Shown here: one piece after another, positions 31,229 to 39,864 of the stretch
Layout: each line of letters opens with the position of its first letter
How positions within the stretch are numbered: the stretch's first letter is position 1
Program-made: the position numbers and the translations under genes
DNA from: Spirochaetota bacterium
GTDB taxonomy: Bacteria; Spirochaetota; UBA12135; COTS27
Length of the DNA stretch: 64,000 bases
Reading direction: 5' to 3'
NCBI GenBank assembly: GCA_013426755.1
Contig: AP019861.1
Span: 1,254,270-1,318,269 of the forward strand
The notes under the pieces: model-generated
Told to the model about the DNA's origin: nothing
What the model saw: only the letters and a program-made list of their open reading frames with translations
Databases searched by the model: none

Positions 31229-34200
31229 TTAGCGAAGCTGCGGGTACGCTCCTGATCGCAATTGCCATATCATCGTCGTATCCCATCCTACATAGACAGC
31301 ATCACTTCCACTTGGAATAGGATTAGCCACCTGTAACTGGGCAGTCGTTCTTCCCGTACCCCCATCACTCGCAGTCAAGCCGCTCGTATCCGTATCCCAG
31401 TACGACGCTGTTATCACAGCACCAGGACCAGAGTCATTGCTACCATTAAAACCGCCTACGCTAGCAGTACCACTCACCGCACCCGTTGCGTAAGAATTGC
31501 TGATTGAGAGTATATTGTATCCTACAAACCCCCCTACATTCGTAGCACCACTCACATTACCTGTTGCATAGGAATTGTCGATCACTCCCGTATTGCGACC
31601 CACCAAGCCTCCTACACTCGTATTACCCAAACGCCCCGTCACAGCGCCTGTCGCATAGGACCTCGTGATCGTTCCTCCTGAGAAGTGAACATCCCCTACT
31701 AACCCTCCTACATTGACGCTCCCATTCACATTGCCCGTTGCATAAGAATTTGAGATCGTCATGTTACCACCGTAAGCCGCTTTCCCCACTAAGCCGCCCA
31801 CATCACCCGTTCCTGCCACAGCTCCTGTCGCATAAGTATTTATGAGCTCACCACCACTTCCTAACCCAACGAGTCCTCCAGTAAAATCACGCGCCGTCAC
31901 AACCCCCGTCGCATAAGAATCAGTCACCGTTCCACCTCCTAATTCACCTATTAAACCACCTGCAGCACCAGTCGCTCTAGCCCCCACTGAAACCGCTACC
32001 GTCGCATAAGAATTAGAAATCTCCGTAGTACCACCAGCAACACCCACTAAGCCTCCCGCAATAATCCTAACCGCCATTACCCTTCCATTTTGTGCCGAAG
32101 AGTTTATAACCTTTGAAGTCCCATTTAGAATACCTACCAAACTTCCTGCCCGACCATACCCCGTCACATGAGGACTTATCAAGTGGCAATTACTTATACT
32201 TCCTCCTGTATTGACATGTGCAAACAGTCCTTTGACATTGCCATTGGTCTCTCCAGAGGAAACAGCATTGCTAATAAAAAGATTTGAAATCTCATGATTA
32301 TCACAATTAAAATTTCCACTAAAATTATTCGTATGATTTCTGTTATCAAACTGCGGCAACCCATTGAGTTCGTCCATCGCTAAAAGCGTCGAACCAATCG
32401 GCGTGAACCCATACGCACGCGGATTAGCATGCTGCGAACGATCACTCCACGGTGCCTCAGCTATCCCCAGATCAATTGCTCTAGTCAACTCATAGTGATC
32501 GTCTTTATGGGGACTAGGAAGACTAGTTACGTCATTGATCGTACGGGAAATCAGGTCTAGTTTCATGTCATTGTCGATCTGCCAGGGATTGCCACTCGTT
32601 CCAGCCCCTAAGATAGTCGCTGGATTCCCCGTAGCAACCGGGTCAGTAAGCATGCATTCTTGAATAGTTGGCGTTAGCGTATATATCGTCACATCACCGT
32701 CTGCCTCTGTGATCCTAAGCTCTTGCGCGTCTGTTTTGATATTGTTCGCAGCAACCACTTCATCGAAGTAATGATTGATCGCAGGCGCTGGCGTGCCTAT
32801 CGTATAACCGTGATTCTCACTTCCGCCCACCTTAAACGTAACCTCAGGAGCGTACTCACGACAACTCGCATTCGTCAGACTGAGTGGAAAATAGGCTACA
32901 TAGTTTTCATCCAACGTTCCCGTATGGGGCGTCGGTGTGTTAAAAGCAACTATCGTCCCCGCTACATTGAATATTTCGATAAGCGGCTTAAAGTGAATAT
33001 GCATCGTGTACGTCTCGCTATTGCCTTCGGTCGGCGCTGCGATACTTCCCTCAGCAACCGTTATCGTATAGAGACCGTGATTTAGAACCTCAGCAATCCC
33101 AGTCCCATCTGGATCCGTAATCGCAATAGGTAACGTCGTCGGGCTAGGAGGTGTGACTTGATTGACTTCATAAACATACCCTGCGGGGAGATATTGAACT
33201 GGCGGTGTGGGTGGTTCGGGGGTCGCTTGGTCCTTAAAACTAAACGTGCCTGCCACGCCGTCTATAACATTTGTGAACTTCACTGCAAACGCATTCGCAC
33301 CTGTCTGGAAGATACGCGAGGGAAGCGGATTATTGGCATTGAATGACCCTTCGAACGACGTCGCCGTAATCAGTTCTGCCACAGGAATCCCTTTGAAATG
33401 CGTCACAACGTCCATCAGAAAGGCATTGCCGTCGGCTGGAACTATTGTGAATTGTCCTCTATTCGTCACCGAGATATTCGTAATACCAGGAGGGTCACTG
33501 ATTGTCACCGTACGGGGCATCACCGAGAATGGACGTAGATCATCCTCAATCGTGATGTTCACCTCAGCATTTAAATGCGTGTAGGCATTCGTAAGGTTCG
33601 TGATTGTGACGACACCGTTTGCAATGTCAACGTCAATGTCATTAGGATCGGATTCCTTGCCGTTATAGACAACCGTAATGTCTTTGTTGCCCAGCGCCGA
33701 TGTATCGAAGAATCTAGCGACGACTTCATAGGTTTCACTGTTTCCATTGACCGGGTTGCTCGTATCCGTCCCCTCAGCAATGATGATCTTGCCAATGTTT
33801 GTCGTGATCGCATCAATGCTAGGCGGATCATTGATCACCAATTCACTACTCGTATACCCTTCTGGAAGCTCTATCACCTTAAACAAGCCAGCCGCTCCAT
33901 CGCTGAGATTTGTAAACCCGTTTATGATGATTTTATTTCCTGCATTGTCGACTTCAATCACTCCAGCCTGCGGCGGCGTCGTAGGACTGATCACAAGCGC
34001 ACTCTCACTAGGTCCGTACGTTGCACTAAACAAGTCCGCCGAAATAAGCTCCTTCACCGCCACACCAGAAAAATCAATCAATATATCCATCTCCTGCTCA
34101 CGTCCCTCCGCAGGAACCAGCATAAACGCTTCCAGCAGACTTTGTGATTTACTCGCAATTCCCGTAGGATCATCAAACCCTATCGAGAGTGGAAATGCAT

Positions 34201-34564
34201 TGAACGCAGTAGAACGCTCACTGATTGTTATCTTTCCCTTTGCTTGCAGGTTGTCGTAGACATTCGTAAGCCCTGTGACAATAAGCTTAGTTCTACTTAT
34301 GGTGATGTGTTCTTGCGGTACTTTTTCTTCATTGAACACAACCTCAATATCCGCCGAATTAAACGGTGATTTATCCGGCGGTGGATTCTTCTGCAGTAAC
34401 GCCGTACATCCTCCCATCACTACCACTACAACCGCTCCTAGTAATACTATGGCTAGGTATGATCTTACGGGGAACTTGGGTTGTATAGGGAATTTGGGAA
34501 GGGTCCTTGGAAAAAATTTTAGGGCAACTTTCTTTGAAAATTGCTTCAATAACTCAATATTCAT
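31229..34564 (-). CDS. GLUG-motif surface lipoprotein (family member 4)
   Basis: 1111 aa. It has a lipobox-like VVMGGC. The N-terminal half has repeated ..TGLTN../..ITDPDG..NSETY.. modules related to members 1 and 2. The lead-in is NPWQIDN...AIDL...FSGNFNCDNHEISNLFI, followed by GLUG units, and it ends SYWD...YPQLR. Confidence 0.8.
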   Translation of the reverse strand: MNIELLKQFSKKVALKFFPRTLPKFPIQPKFPVRSYLAIVLLGAVVVVVMGGCTALLQKNPPPDKSPFNSADIEVVFNEEKVPQEHITISRTKLIVTGLTNVYDNLQAKGKITISERSTAFNAFPLSIGFDDPTGIASKSQSLLEAFMLVPAEGREQEMDILIDFSGVAVKELISADLFSATYGPSESALVISPTTPPQAGVIEVDNAGNKIIINGFTNLSDGAAGLFKVIELPEGYTSSELVINDPPSIDAITTNIGKIIIAEGTDTSNPVNGNSETYEVVARFFDTSALGNKDITVVYNGKESDPNDIDVDIANGVVTITNLTNAYTHLNAEVNITIEDDLRPFSVMPRTVTISDPPGITNISVTNRGQFTIVPADGNAFLMDVVTHFKGIPVAELITATSFEGSFNANNPLPSRIFQTGANAFAVKFTNVIDGVAGTFSFKDQATPEPPTPPVQYLPAGYVYEVNQVTPPSPTTLPIAITDPDGTGIAEVLNHGLYTITVAEGSIAAPTEGNSETYTMHIHFKPLIEIFNVAGTIVAFNTPTPHTGTLDENYVAYFPLSLTNASCREYAPEVTFKVGGSENHGYTIGTPAPAINHYFDEVVAANNIKTDAQELRITEADGDVTIYTLTPTIQECMLTDPVATGNPATILGAGTSGNPWQIDNDMKLDLISRTINDVTSLPSPHKDDHYELTRAIDLGIAEAPWSDRSQHANPRAYGFTPIGSTLLAMDELNGLPQFDNRNHTNNFSGNFNCDNHEISNLFISNAVSSGETNGNVKGLFAHVNTGGSISNCHLISPHVTGYGRAGSLVGILNGTSKVINSSAQNGRVMAVRIIAGGLVGVAGGTTEISNSYATVAVSVGARATGAAGGLIGELGGGTVTDSYATGVVTARDFTGGLVGLGSGGELINTYATGAVAGTGDVGGLVGKAAYGGNMTISNSYATGNVNGSVNVGGLVGDVHFSGGTITRSYATGAVTGRLGNTSVGGLVGRNTGVIDNSYATGNVSGATNVGGFVGYNILSISNSYATGAVSGTASVGGFNGSNDSGPGAVITASYWDTDTSGLTASDGGTGRTTAQLQVANPIPSGSDAVYVGWDTTMIWQLRSGAYPQLR

Positions 34565-34574
34565 TTCATATTAC

Positions 34575-34860
34575 CTTTCTTTATTTCATATTGCCTTTGT
34601 TTATTTTTTATTCTCTTTATCTATTTTGTGTTACCTTTGTTTATTTTCTATTCTCTTTATCTATTTTGTGTTACCTTTGTTTATTTTTATTCTCTTTATC
34701 TATTTTGTGTTACCTTTGTTTATTTTTATTCTCTTTATCTATTTTATATTGCCTTTGTTTGTTTTCTACTCTCTTTATCTATTTTATATTGCCCTTGTTT
34801 GCTTTCTTTCTACTCTCTTTATTTATTTTATATTTCCTTTATTTTGTATTGCCTTTAATG
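34575..34860. repeat. Intergenic tandem repeat, 39-42-bp unit x~6.5, abutting the start codon of 31229-34564
   Basis: The marker ctctttatct recurs at 34613, 34653, 34692, 34731 and 34771. The unit is tattctctttatctattttgtgttacctttgtttattt. The array begins about 10 bp from the ATG at 34564. Confidence 0.9.
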
Positions 34861-35005
34861 AGGCATGTTTCTATTGAATACTATTCTGTTAGCTATTTTG
34901 ACCGTTGGTTTTATTATTCCTTGCTATTATCATTGTGAACCGTTGGTTTTATCATTGGAGCATTAAATGTATTGTTATCATAACTCATCATTTCCATTAT
35001 AACCT

Positions 35006-35335
35006 GTTTTCAAGTTCAATACTTTAACTTTGCTACTATTTTTGGATTGAGCGATTTATTTTTAGTGCTATTTTCAAATTGAATACTTTGTTTTTATGAC
35101 TATTTTCAAATTGAATACTTTGTTTTTATGGCTGTTCTTAAATTGAATACTTTATTTTTATGGCTATTTTGAAGTTAAATACTTTGTTTTTATGGCTATT
35201 TTCAAGTTGAATCCTTTGTTTTTATGACTATTTTCAAGTTGAATACTTTATTTTTATGACTATTTTCAAGTTGAATACTTTGTTTTTATGGCTGTTTTTA
35301 AGTTGAATACTTTGTTTTTATGGCTGTTTTACTGC
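35006..35335. repeat. Intergenic tandem repeat, exact 32-bp period x~10
   Basis: gaatac recurs at 35081, 35113, 35145, (35177), 35209, 35241, 35273 and 35305. The unit is ctattttcaagttgaatactttgtttttatgg. Confidence 0.95.
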
Positions 35336-35740
35336 TATTTCATCACTATTTTTCATCAATCGCAATCTCAATCTCTTATCCGCAATTCCTCCCCGTATCC
35401 CAACGGTATTTCCTCCCTGCACAGTTTATTCTCCGAGAATCATCACCATTCAGACGCCATCATACGATAACTCATGATATACGATAACTCACGATATTTC
35501 ATGATAACTATTCAAAATTCAGCATAGCATTCAGTATACCATTCAGCATTATAACTGAACCCCTACACTTCAATTAACGGTATGGCTACGCTATAACACA
35601 TTCATTATACGGTATTTCTTGTAGAATGACGCATAAATTTATAACTAGCTGCCATTAAATTTATTTTTAACCGTCAATATAAGGTTTTTGCCCTGTTTTC
35701 ATTTATTTTCTAGCCCTTTCAATATCTATTTCTATTTGCC

Positions 35741-36316
35741 ACTTACCATTTATGATTTACCGTTTATTATTTATCATTTATTATTTACCATTTATTATTT
35801 ACCAATTATCATTTACCGTTTATTATTTACCAATTATCATTTACCAATTATTATTTACCAATTATTATTTACGAATTATTATTTACCATTTATTATTTAC
35901 CAATTATTATTTACCAATTATCATTTACCAATTATCATTTACCATTTATTATTTACCAATTATCATTTACCGTTTATTATTTACCAATTATCATTTACCA
36001 ATTATCATTTACCAATTATCATTTACCAATTATCATTTACCGTTTATTATTTACCAATTATCATTTACCAATTATCATTTACCAATTATCATTTACCAAT
36101 TATCATTTACCAATTATCATTTAGCAATTATTATTTACCAATTATTATTTACCAATTATTATTTACCAATTATCATTTACCGTTTATTATTTACCATTTA
36201 TCATTTACCAATTATTATTTACCATTTAGCATTTACCAATTATTATTTACCATTTAGCATTTACCAATTATCATTTACCAATTATTATTTACCGTTTAGT
36301 ATTTACTATTTATCAT
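35741..36316. repeat. Intergenic microsatellite-like array, 14-bp unit x~40
   Basis: The unit is atttaccaattatc, with the variants atttaccgtttatt and atttaccatttatt. Confidence 0.95.
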
Positions 36317-36420
36317 ATGTGATTTTTAGGTAATTTTATATCAAATTTAAAGTGCTACGGAGTCTTATCCCCGTCTTTACACGTATTCGCCTCATCATTC
36401 GTGTATTGCTCATGCGAACA

Positions 36421-39400
36421 TCATATCCCTATAAGACGCGGATAAATCCCATTCATAAAAGACCACACTCCAGTATCCCAATTCACATATACAGCATTCT
36501 CACCACTACCACCATTAGTCGTCGGAGCTGAGACTTGAAGTTCCACAGTCCTCCGACCTACCGCATTCACATCAGCACTCGCCGACTGCCCTGTTGTCTC
36601 TTTATCCCAATAAGAAGCAATTGTCATCCCACCACTATTATTTCCAACCAGCCCACCTGTAGTCGCATTTCCAATCACACTCCCAGCCGCATACACATTA
36701 GATAACACGCCCCCATAACGCTCACCAACAATACCCCCCACCTGCGTTGTTCCCACAATCGAAGCCGTCGAGTACGCATTCGCTACAGTACCACCCACTT
36801 GCCATCCGACCAGACCCCCCGCCTGAACATCCATACCCCGCACAAACCCCGCCGTATAAGATACACTCACATTCCCCGTAGAACCCAGCTGCCCCACCAG
36901 ACCACCGACAATTCCATTCCCACGCAAAGTACTCTCCACAACATAACTACGCGTGATCGCACCCGCATTCGAGCCCACTAACCCTCCTGTGATCCTCCCG
37001 CGATTAGACAATCCTGCATTTCTTACATACGCATCAAGAATCATTCCTGCATTGTAACCGATCATCCCGCCTAACGGTAAGAACGTTTTCACCTGTCCAT
37101 TACCATTGCTGACCGTGACCTCTTCGAGAGCCACACGATCAATTGTTCCCGCAGCCACCACTCCAGCCAGCCCGCCTAGGTAAGCATTGCCAATAATTTT
37201 TACATTGCGTAACTGACAATTGCTGATCACACCACCATCGACAATTCCAAACAATCCCTTATAATTGCCGTTATTCGTCACATTCGTTCTTGTATTTGAA
37301 ATGTAGAGGTTTGAGATCGTTTGGTTATTGCAGTCAAAAGTGCCACGGAACCGACTCGTATGCGAACCAAAACTATTCACCGCATTTCTAGTCGTCCCAA
37401 TCGGTATAAACCCACCATAATTCCCAGCTCCATCACTATTTCCATCACCACTTCCGCTTTTTGCCTCACTCCACGGCGCTTCCACCTCCCCCAAATCCAC
37501 ATCCGCTGTCAAACGATAATGATCGTCTCCGTAGACATCATTCGTCTCATTGACAAGCTCAGCCACTAAGTTTAACCTAAGAGCGCTGTCGACCTGCCAC
37601 GGATTAGCAGCTGTTCCCACATCGACTAAATCTCCATTGACACCCATCATCCCAACGATATTCTCTTCATCGTCTTTTAATGTGCAAGCCCCTACATTGA
37701 CGGTGAATAAAAATTCTGCTATTGGATTTATTGGATTTTCTAGTGCCGCCTCCCCCTCAGCAATCAATCTTAACCGCCTAGCATACATGCCCGCTTCATA
37801 TGGATTTATAGGACGACTATTCATGTCTTCGATTGTGGCACGGATATGAGTCACTGGCATTCCCCCTACAAAAACCGTAGTGCGCGGTGAAAATTCTGTC
37901 CGACACGGCTTCAATCGTACCTCCGCCGTATCCAAAACCTCGCCTTCCGTAAAAATAACCTCCTCAATACCCCCACTCAAACGAACCTGCACTACTCCCA
38001 CAAATTTTAATTCCACGCGATAAGACAAGCCCCCATTCGACAAGTCCCCATTTGCTCCAATCGGTGTAAAAACAATCTCTTCTTTAACCGTCATTTTAGT
38101 TTCTGCCAGCCCAGGGGGATTGAGTTTCGAACCTGAAATCGTAAACACCTCAGGCTCCGCTCGGTACAACGCATTGCTATCATCACTCCCAATTCTTACC
38201 GTAAGCATTCCCGTCACATCATCGAGCCGATTGGTAACCATTCCAATTGTTATCACATCGTTTGTGATGCTCATCACCGCAGGCGCCTCGTACAGAACGT
38301 CATCTGAAGTTGTGATCCTTATATCCTCACGCTGGACGCATTCTTTAACATTAACGTCGAATGAAAACTCGGTGATTAAAACGCCATTGTTACGCACCGC
38401 TAACACAGCAGCAACCGTTCCAATGATATATGGATTGATTTCACTCACCGTTACGCTCAGTCCTGGCGCATTCTCCGAAGGGTCATTTCTAGTACCCAAG
38501 ATATTTGCAGTGTTCAAGTGGTTATTCTCAGTACCCAAGATATTTGTAGTATTCAAATGATTATTTCCAGTACCCAAGATATTTGTAGTATTCAAATGAT
38601 TATTTCCAGTACCCAAGATATTTGTAGTATTCAAAGGGTTATTTCCAGTACCCAGAATAGCTGCCGTATTCGAGTTAGCATCACCTTCGGTAGGGCTATT
38701 CAAATTGTCCGCACCGTAACTAAACGGCACCTCAATGCCCCCATCCAATACCCTAATGCTAGGCGGGAAATCACTACACGCCCGCAATTCAAGTCTCTCG
38801 CCACCAGCCGCATACTCCGTCAACGTCACCTCACCTTCACCACTCCCAAGACGCACCTGCACCAACCCTCCCAGCTCTACCACAATCTGATATTTTAACG
38901 CCCGATCATAGAGCTTAAAACCCGCCGCATCCACCGGAATGATTGCAATCTCAAACGGAGCTGTCATTCTCTCAGCGCCTATGCCGATTGGATTGAGAAC
39001 TAGCCCTGATATTGTAAACGTCTCGGGCTCCGCTTCGTACGCCACGTCGCTACTGGTGTCTTTGATTGTGACCGTAAGCATTCCTGTAACGTCGTCATTG
39101 TGATTTTTGATATTGCCGATTGTTATCATATTTTTGCTATTCGCATTATCAGTGTTCACATTGTCAATATTCGCATTCTTGGTATTCAAATTATCAGTGT
39201 TCGCGTTCTTGGTATACACATTGTCAATATTCACATTGTAAGTGTTCGTATTCTGGGTATACACATTGTTAGTATTCGCATTGTAAGTGTTCGTATTCTG
39301 GGTATACACATTGTCAATATTCACATTGTTAGTATTCGCATTGTTAGTGTTCGTGTTCTTGGTATACACATTGTAGGTGTTCGTATTCTGGGTATACACA

Positions 39401-39864
39401 TTGCCAATATTCGCATTCTGGGTGTTCGCATTGTAAGTGTTCGTGTTCTTGGTATACACATTGTAGGTGTTCGTATTCTGGGTATACACATTGCCAATAT
39501 TCGCATTCTGGGTGTTCGCATTGTCAGTGTTCGTGTTCTCGACAATACCCGTGATGCGCGGACCCTCATACAACACTACATCCGAACTCTCAATCATAAT
39601 GTCTTCCACAGCCACCGACACAACTTCCACCTCTTCAATCACCTCTGCTATTTCTCCCAAACCACGCTGCCCTATCGTACACCCAAGGGTTATCATTGCT
39701 AATAGGAGCATCAGGAGCATCAGGGGCATCAGGAGCATCACCACCACCGCTCCTAGCCTTAATAGTCCTCCTCCTCCCCTCTTCTTATACAAAAAGGTTC
39801 TGGGTAGTAGGGACGCGCTTATTGATATTGAAGATCGGAGCATTGATTTTTCTTTTTCATTCAA
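36421..39864 (-). CDS. GLUG-motif surface lipoprotein with Asn-rich repeat tracts (family member 5)
   Basis: 1147 aa. It has a hydrophobic leader plus the lipobox ITLGC and an Asn/Thr-rich tract. Duplicated ~250-aa modules share the motif DDVTGMLTV.I...S...Y.AEPE.FTISG..LNP.G. There is also a 13-aa repeat tract. The lead-in is NPWQVDS...DVDL...FRGTFDCNNQTISNLYI, followed by GLUG units, and it ends SYWDKETTG...YPRL. Confidence 0.8.
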   Translation of the reverse strand: MNEKEKSMLRSSISISASLLPRTFLYKKRGGGGLLRLGAVVVMLLMPLMLLMLLLAMITLGCTIGQRGLGEIAEVIEEVEVVSVAVEDIMIESSDVVLYEGPRITGIVENTNTDNANTQNANIGNVYTQNTNTYNVYTKNTNTYNANTQNANIGNVYTQNTNTYNVYTKNTNTNNANTNNVNIDNVYTQNTNTYNANTNNVYTQNTNTYNVNIDNVYTKNANTDNLNTKNANIDNVNTDNANSKNMITIGNIKNHNDDVTGMLTVTIKDTSSDVAYEAEPETFTISGLVLNPIGIGAERMTAPFEIAIIPVDAAGFKLYDRALKYQIVVELGGLVQVRLGSGEGEVTLTEYAAGGERLELRACSDFPPSIRVLDGGIEVPFSYGADNLNSPTEGDANSNTAAILGTGNNPLNTTNILGTGNNHLNTTNILGTGNNHLNTTNILGTENNHLNTANILGTRNDPSENAPGLSVTVSEINPYIIGTVAAVLAVRNNGVLITEFSFDVNVKECVQREDIRITTSDDVLYEAPAVMSITNDVITIGMVTNRLDDVTGMLTVRIGSDDSNALYRAEPEVFTISGSKLNPPGLAETKMTVKEEIVFTPIGANGDLSNGGLSYRVELKFVGVVQVRLSGGIEEVIFTEGEVLDTAEVRLKPCRTEFSPRTTVFVGGMPVTHIRATIEDMNSRPINPYEAGMYARRLRLIAEGEAALENPINPIAEFLFTVNVGACTLKDDEENIVGMMGVNGDLVDVGTAANPWQVDSALRLNLVAELVNETNDVYGDDHYRLTADVDLGEVEAPWSEAKSGSGDGNSDGAGNYGGFIPIGTTRNAVNSFGSHTSRFRGTFDCNNQTISNLYISNTRTNVTNNGNYKGLFGIVDGGVISNCQLRNVKIIGNAYLGGLAGVVAAGTIDRVALEEVTVSNGNGQVKTFLPLGGMIGYNAGMILDAYVRNAGLSNRGRITGGLVGSNAGAITRSYVVESTLRGNGIVGGLVGQLGSTGNVSVSYTAGFVRGMDVQAGGLVGWQVGGTVANAYSTASIVGTTQVGGIVGERYGGVLSNVYAAGSVIGNATTGGLVGNNSGGMTIASYWDKETTGQSASADVNAVGRRTVELQVSAPTTNGGSGENAVYVNWDTGVWSFMNGIYPRLIGI
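38488..38672. repeat. 39-bp coding repeat x~5 (ILGTGNNHLNTTN)
   Basis: agtacccaagatatttgtagtattcaaatgattatttcc is reiterated. The protein tract is ILGTGNNPLNTTNILGTGNNHLNTTNILGTGNNHLNTTNILGTENNHLNTANILGT. Confidence 0.9.
39125..39545. repeat. Nested 15/30/90-bp coding repeats (Asn-rich N-T-N-T-Y-N-V-Y-T-K-type units)
   Basis: The segments 39361-39450 and 39451-39540 are almost identical 90-bp copies built from ggtatacacattgt.a.tgttcgtattct subunits. The protein tract is NTQNANIGNVYTQNTNTYNVYTKNTNTYNA... Confidence 0.9.

Follow-up and report, generated by a model that had tools for sequence, protein, structure and literature searches.

We examined the 1,856-bp spacer at positions 34565-36420 of a 64,000-bp window (the whole stretch of DNA analyzed here; contig AP019861.1, positions 1,254,270 to 1,318,269) from COTS27, the crown-of-thorns starfish's subcuticular spirochaete and a host-restricted symbiont. 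This spacer lies between two minus-strand GLUG-repeat genes, here called P0001 (downstream) and P0002 (upstream), and 1,120 of its 1,856 bp are occupied by three minisatellites, arrays A, B and C, the first of which runs into the start of P0001. The three arrays are ordinary for this genome, being three among about 550 intergenic arrays; their units are private, and they are probably near-neutral minisatellites generated by slippage, that is, DNA of the variable-number tandem repeat (VNTR) type. An earlier note had proposed that they form a candidate copy-number switch for the expression of P0001, but a dedicated switch found no support in our tests of spacer orientation, gene ends, strand, gene family, repeat tracts or leader structure.

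Arrays were detected with Tandem Repeats Finder (TRF), and their coordinates are collected with those of the other features in Table 1. All three minisatellites that the earlier note had described upstream of the GLUG gene were recovered, with scores of 336, 352 and 806 for arrays A, B and C, whereas shuffling the spacer 200 times with its dinucleotides preserved gave no score above 100. The approximately 40 units that had been counted in the 14-bp array agree with the 40.3 found by TRF, whereas the approximately ten units given for the 32-bp array come down to 8.6. Array A, called by TRF at a period of 40 bp, also reads as period 20 starting at 34563. The array periods of 14, 32 and 40 bp are all indivisible by 3.

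Placing these arrays in their genomic context, with arrays defined genome-wide by a TRF score of at least 100, revealed how common such elements are in COTS27. The assembly (one contig of 2,684,921 bp, 39.6% G+C) holds 721 arrays that make up 6.4% of the genome, and COTS27 appears to be among the most minisatellite-rich of bacterial genomes; in the COTS27 genome paper, tandem repeats come up solely as what led to 23 assembly gaps within genes. Relative to our own longest-open-reading-frame gene calls (1,514 genes and 78% coding, versus 1,650 published genes, with approximate starts), 553 of the 721 arrays were intergenic, and arrays covered 22% of intergenic versus 1.7% of coding DNA. Periods that are multiples of 3 characterized 99% of coding arrays versus 25% of intergenic ones. 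Most intergenic arrays (505 of 553, or 91%) possessed private units, arrays A, B and C included, and searching the rest of the genome with the spacer returned only marginal AT-rich matches, with the three arrays standing as singleton unit clusters. Their unit identity (88-89%) sits at the genome median of 88%.

The alternative that the earlier note favored is a contingency locus or rheostat, in which the number of units in the arrays switches or tunes one GLUG surface lipoprotein. We consider this unlikely, and the distribution of arrays over spacers is one reason. Between well-supported flanking genes, the fraction of spacer DNA taken up by arrays was 21% (divergent), 23% (convergent) or 24% (tandem), and because convergent spacers lack promoters and yet are equally array-dense, this counts against a gene-specific switch. 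Gene ends told a similar story: 92 genes had an array no more than 15 bp from their stop codon versus 46 with one equally close to the start, and the median array distance was 59 bp from the stop codon versus 137 bp from the start. Arrays extend up to what selection protects, gene starts being better protected than gene ends. An array that touches a start, as array A does, is uncommon though not unique (among 406 genes that possess an upstream array, 29, or about 7%, carry it no more than 5 bp from the start), and this relative rarity is a point in the rheostat's favor.

Strand composition offered a further view. The cumulative GC-skew maximum, which is likely the replication terminus, lies at genome position 1,273,757 (about 19.5 kb into the window), with the minimum at the contig start; it sits at the 5' end of a repeat-bloated waaA, beside a 2.7-kb gene-free repeat region. 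Intergenic arrays had a mean leading-strand purine fraction of 0.54 (t = 9.9), alike whether the flanking genes were co-directional with replication or opposed to it, while on the gene-sense strand the bias flipped from 0.536 (co-directional) to 0.458 (opposed). Replication, and not transcription, is therefore what the asymmetry follows, contrary to what a rheostat would suggest. Arrays A, B and C show the bias strongly, with leading-strand purine fractions of 0.81, 0.63 and 0.66.

We also evaluated the GLUG family, which has 87 paralogues in this 2.68-Mb genome. P0001 belongs to what is a predicted surface family, in which individual tuning of members would make sense, but upstream arrays are lacking in 75 of the 87, and the 12 that do have one compare with 394 of 1427 other genes, a depletion (odds ratio 0.42, p 0.004; 27% of all genes have an upstream array). 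P0001 is the only one of the 87 with an array touching its start, and most GLUG genes lie 80-400 bp apart without arrays between them. Most of the paralogues sit head to tail, clustered on the second replichore (1.18-1.83 Mb), and many possess a long N-terminal leader with a poly-proline tract, and often an assembly gap, before the lipobox. As for the label "GLUG lipoprotein" in the earlier note, its first half stands (Pfam Glug, E 6e-21), whereas the second is a prediction drawn solely from the lipobox-like VVMGGC at residue 53 of the P0001 translation.

The internal anatomy of array C points to slippage growth. It consists of 12 unit variants in the non-periodic order FCGDACABBHDBAADACAAAACAAAAAIBBACJBEBEABKL, with a homogeneous center (runs of 4-5 identical units) and degenerate edges, which is the usual signature of such growth; it is also one of only 3 intergenic arrays in the genome with at least 40 copies. 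The longest perfect tracts in arrays A, B and C span 2.5, 2.0 and 5.4 units, with the tract in array B measuring 63 bp and the center of array C also holding a 70-bp higher-order unit that is duplicated perfectly over 161 bp. Because the arrays still contain tandem tracts of 63-161 bp without mismatch, slippage is plausible and some copy-number heterogeneity within populations is to be expected, as a rheostat would need, although such heterogeneity would presumably be a by-product and not a designed switch. The arrays are nonetheless imperfect, with interrupted units of average age, and in this they are unlike the uninterrupted tracts of classical contingency loci. An origin as repetitive extragenic palindromes, miniature inverted-repeat transposable elements or clustered regularly interspaced short palindromic repeats was rejected, as the units are private and contiguous and have no unique spacers.

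Array A overlaps the start region of P0001. The earlier note had placed an array of about 40 bp per unit close to the ATG, which is correct as far as it goes, but the array does not merely abut the gene: its last, partial unit AAGGTAATATGAAATG contains the P0001 ribosome-binding site and ATG, along with the first two codons. Gene-sense units all open with AAGG(T/C)AA(T/C)A(T/C)(A/G)AAAT(A/G), which is the P0001 initiation region in decayed form, and the Shine-Dalgarno-like AAAGG is complementary to the organism's 16S rRNA 3' tail (...CCUCCUUU). The unit just upstream, AAGGCAATATGAAATAAAGA, is identical at 17 of 20 positions to AAGGTAATATGAAATGAATA, which runs into the gene, indicating that the seeding duplication took in the first two codons. 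Array A holds only two ATGs, each of which starts a two-codon mini-open reading frame: ATG AAA TGA at 34569-34561 on the minus strand, whose ATGA overlaps the P0001 start codon, and ATG AAA TAA at 34589, one unit upstream. The two arose incidentally when the initiation region was duplicated. The sole alternative in-frame start before the signal peptide, a TTG at codon 6, would leave this picture unchanged. When the first 60 residues of P0001 were compared by BLAST with paralogue N-termini, just the signal-peptide core (residues 31-55) aligned, while the opening MNI..LLK..SKK resembles that of paralogues such as MNILQKSILKTSKN, which is only suggestive for the start codon. Elsewhere in the genome, array units seem to include a putative start and first codons at positions 455051, 990007, 2194794 and 2502865, among others (for example 58 bp x 8, each opening ATGTTAGAAC); these starts are longest-reading-frame calls, and the true ones may lie downstream.

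Taken together, we suggest that the arrays arise through replication slippage or tandem duplication and would be tolerated wherever no gene is broken. RecA-independent slipped misalignment at tandem repeats has reportedly been described by Lovett and colleagues. Array A was probably seeded by tandem duplication of a segment of about 20 bp that included the ribosome-binding site, the ATG and the first two codons, with the gene-proximal copy staying functional and the upstream copies having lost their ATG; arrays B and C would have originated independently, from unrelated local sequence. Retention of such arrays probably reflects weak selection against extra non-coding DNA in a host-restricted symbiont. 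Purifying selection would then act only as a filter, so that arrays are kept in spacers of any orientation, and in genes if their period is a multiple of 3.

What such an array could do to the transcript depends on where the P0001 promoter lies. Non-repeat DNA is first met upstream of the ATG at 34858, which puts any promoter of the gene's own at least 293 nt away and bears out the earlier statement that any promoter lies inside or beyond the arrays. Judged by this layout, the P0001 mRNA leader must contain array A, whether transcription starts from 34858 on, further up or by read-through from P0002, and a gain or loss of units would indeed alter leader length, as had been proposed. This geometry fits a rheostat, and precedents exist both for transcribed repeats that control adhesins (PMC12721329) and for promoter repeats on the minisatellite scale (PMC12817950). 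The leader itself, which would be about 290 nt or longer, A-rich and built of repeats, is predicted to be unstructured: its fold reached -14.8 kcal/mol over 366 nt (z -0.75 versus shuffled sequences), with the repeats unpaired. A hairpin of the kind that serves as a ribonuclease III (RNase III) target in the hmw leaders was thus rejected, the fold being no better than that of shuffles, and this speaks against the rheostat. Any effect of the arrays on the P0001 leader would probably be incidental.

Promoter searches did little to favor a switch either. The scan listed no match on the gene strand within array A, and the adjoining non-repeat DNA held a weak match (sigma-70-like ATGATA-18-GATAAT, minus strand, 34955->34926, 9/12). 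On the gene strand, array C repeats TTGGTA-17-(A/G)ATAAT at 14-bp intervals, spread over two units (9/12), with equally good matches on the other strand, as an AT-rich 14-mer would give by chance. Slippage in array A, moreover, retains the terminal unit with its Shine-Dalgarno sequence and ATG, and could accordingly tune translation but hardly switch it off. A further proposal is that array A is a translational rheostat derived from the P0001 initiation region, a transcribed, A-rich and unstructured leader whose 8-9 AAAGG sites act as decoy or standby ribosome-binding sites, so that copy number, changing by slippage among the symbionts, tunes P0001, with arrays B and C setting promoter distance or number; we regard this as quite improbable.

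Array periods raise the question of an architectural role, whether through phased A-tract curvature, arrays of nucleoid-protein sites, or spacers that insulate GLUG genes from read-through or recombination. Among intergenic arrays, periods that are multiples of 10 bp were favored (81 of 521, binomial p 7e-5), as were even over odd periods (300 versus 221), and the 20/40- and 32-bp units here lie near whole helical turns. Array A is also rich in A-tracts (its sense strand is 64% A and 81% purine), and the two largest spacers in the local GLUG cluster are both filled with arrays. Even so, the predominance of private, sequence-unrelated units leaves no common binding motif, an even-number bias is expected from higher-order unit doubling, which may explain part of it, and most GLUG genes are spaced without arrays; we find a dedicated architectural function very unlikely. 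The peaks in array period at 20, 40 and 50 bp are unexplained.

Assembly quality was considered because the genome was built with Platanus from Illumina HiSeq paired-end and mate-pair reads, a short-read approach that left 23 gaps in tandem repeats and in which no single read spans the 564-bp 14-mer array. Copy number or part of the array length could therefore be an artefact of assembly or gap closing around arrays that are themselves real. We hold this to be highly unlikely, since the many distinguishing unit variants follow a non-periodic order that neither collapse nor artificial expansion would create. Coverage was moreover x210, and the circular chromosome was verified with mate pairs and polymerase chain reaction. 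The arrays certainly exist; their exact unit counts, chiefly that of array C, are not guaranteed, because of the short-read assembly.

The size of the spacer, 1.86 kb versus a GLUG-family median of 308 bp, could also suggest a decayed gene, for instance a GLUG paralogue, with the arrays as relics of the in-frame repeats that GLUG genes do carry. This explanation is largely refuted and scarcely credible to us. The sense strand of the spacer has 80-88 stops per frame and nothing open beyond 35 codons, a blastx search with the spacer found no match among the proteins that the genome encodes, the array periods do not preserve a reading frame, and spacer G+C (27-36%) departs from that of the flanking genes (46-49%). 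Open reading frames on the plus strand at 35688-36257, 35752-36333 and 34275-34877 were dismissed as artefacts of T-rich repeats that lack stop codons.

Turning to relatives, the same-genus genome (G001) possessed many tandem duplications and the same-order genomes G003 and G008 few, a lineage pattern that fits a tandem-duplication reading of the arrays. The G001 duplications span 200-450 bp, and their periods are no multiples of 3; at G001:C36:12368-13433 (L015), for example, two copies of a fumC fragment (residues about 269-424) lie between rsmA and an intact fumC. These are a different flavor of the COTS27 tandem-repeat habit. The orthologous spacer itself was not available for comparison, as G001 keeps rsmA-fumC synteny with no GLUG genes beside fumC; a genome-contig search with P0001 found no related locus, exact-protein look-ups of P0001, P0003 and FumC found no independent assembly of the locus, and a 34-mer scan of metagenome contigs did not find it. 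Loss of repair genes as the cause of array accumulation was rejected, with MutS, MutL, the PolA 5'-nuclease, ExoVII and RecA all intact. RecJ is absent in COTS27 and likewise in its array-poor relatives; the RecJ model TIGR00644 had no match in COTS27 or in five relatives of the order (G001, G002, G003, G007 and G008), while 13 of 14 control genomes matched.

Several points weigh against near-neutral slippage as a full account. No loss of repair genes was found to explain why arrays accumulate, P0001 is unusual in having an array so close to its start, few arrays in the genome are as strand-asymmetric as array A, and a purely neutral process would not obviously lead to periods favoring multiples of 10 bp. 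Gene and start calls are approximate, as given above, and array variability and neutrality are judged from the sequence context of one assembly.

Table 1. Features of the P0001-P0002 spacer and its flanks (window coordinates).
Feature	Position	Strand	Description
P0001 (downstream gene)	31229-34564	-	Open reading frame, 1111 aa, GLUG-repeat; Pfam PF07581 Glug, E 6.1e-21
P0001 initiation region	34562-34578	-	AAAGG at 34578-34574, 9 nt, ATG at 34564-34562; terminal array A unit
Array A, whole element	34563-34857	-	20/40-bp units, about 7 copies
Array A, TRF call	34575-34844		Period 40, 6.7 copies, 88% matches, score 336
Non-repeat segment	34858-35054		197 bp; first possible site of P0001's own promoter
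Array B	35055-35330		Period 32, 8.6 copies, 89% matches, score 352
Semi-unique segment	35331-35742		Small decayed repeats at 35356-35375, 35462-35509 and 35517-35549 (TRF minimum score 30)
Array C	35743-36306		Period 14, 40.3 copies, 88% matches, score 806
Hairpin ACGGGG-AUAAGA-CUCCGU	36357-36374	-	6 pairs, weak T-tail, 47 nt past the P0002 stop
P0002 (upstream gene)	36421-39864	-	Open reading frame, 1147 aa, GLUG paralogue, in-frame coding repeats

Beyond the arrays, the hairpin past the P0002 stop is a possible weak terminator of that gene, although the terminator scan did not call it. A second small hairpin (34850-34865) straddles the array A boundary and is terminator-like for the plus strand only. 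The spacer upstream of P0002 measures 2,521 bp and contains 4 further arrays. An Rfam scan of the window returned zero known RNA families, and P0001 had no sequence relative in the PDB. Elsewhere in the genome, 32 intergenic arrays, A-C not among them, form a single dispersed repeat family and share a 10-bp core, (A/C)(A/G)CAGAT(G/A)AAC, in units of 34-177 bp, with examples at genome positions 6352, 210077-248258, 417027-425294, 479433 and 2285357-2286329.

We therefore view the P0001 locus as the ordinary product of a genome-wide process; unless read-level evidence is at hand, it ought not to be counted among phase-variation systems. More broadly, start-adjacent arrays in COTS27 are not by themselves evidence of regulation. 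The genome offers a natural system for following the birth of tandem repeats (in this case probably out of the ribosome-binding site of P0001), their spread and their filtering, with a clean reading-frame filter inside genes and a pattern that also includes purine enrichment on the leading strand and periods that mildly favor multiples of 10 bp.

Among known systems, the closest functional model for the switch idea would be the 7-bp repeats of Haemophilus influenzae hmw1A and hmw2A, which lie in the transcribed 5' untranslated region and with whose number expression scales (PMC12721329, PMC8262952). The hmw tract, like array A, is part of the leader and separates the promoter from the start codon, the gene being one for a large surface adhesin. 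The perfect hmw 7-mers, however, base-pair with a G-rich arm, giving a long hairpin that is the RNase III target, whereas the COTS27 leader is purine-rich and unstructured, lacks this defining hairpin, and is built from interrupted units of 20-40 bp that do not recur across the family.

Long units had been presented in the earlier note as a departure from precedent, but tandem repeats in Mycobacterium tuberculosis promoters were already known. There, some mycobacterial interspersed repetitive unit (MIRU)-VNTR and promoter repeats vary in isogenic populations and alter promoter strength (PMC12817950), and like the COTS27 arrays they have units of tens of base pairs in intergenic or promoter positions. 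They differ in that the M. tuberculosis unit carries promoter elements and its variation has been measured, whereas array A carries a ribosome-binding region and array C has only weak promoter-like matches on both strands. Marine Beggiatoaceae likewise possess many intergenic direct-repeat arrays spread over the genome, composed of TAACTGA repeats for which a regulatory role was proposed (PMC4679880), although there a single heptamer is shared by many loci, in contrast to the 91% private and unrelated units of COTS27.

The closest analogue overall appears to be the non-coding tandem repeats of Ehrlichia ruminantium, which actively expand and contract according to PMC10710844 (citing Collins 2005 and Frutos 2006). 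E. ruminantium belongs to the Rickettsiales, while COTS27 is a spirochaete and an extracellular subcuticular symbiont, and coding density is given there as about 64%, versus about 78% by our own calls in COTS27. Copy-number change in E. ruminantium was shown, in that account, by comparing strains, whereas the COTS27 arrays are known here from sequence alone. As that source describes it, E. ruminantium resembles COTS27 in being host-restricted, with unusually long intergenic regions full of many unrelated tandem repeats, and in having a process that targets non-coding DNA and is genome-wide rather than specific to any gene.

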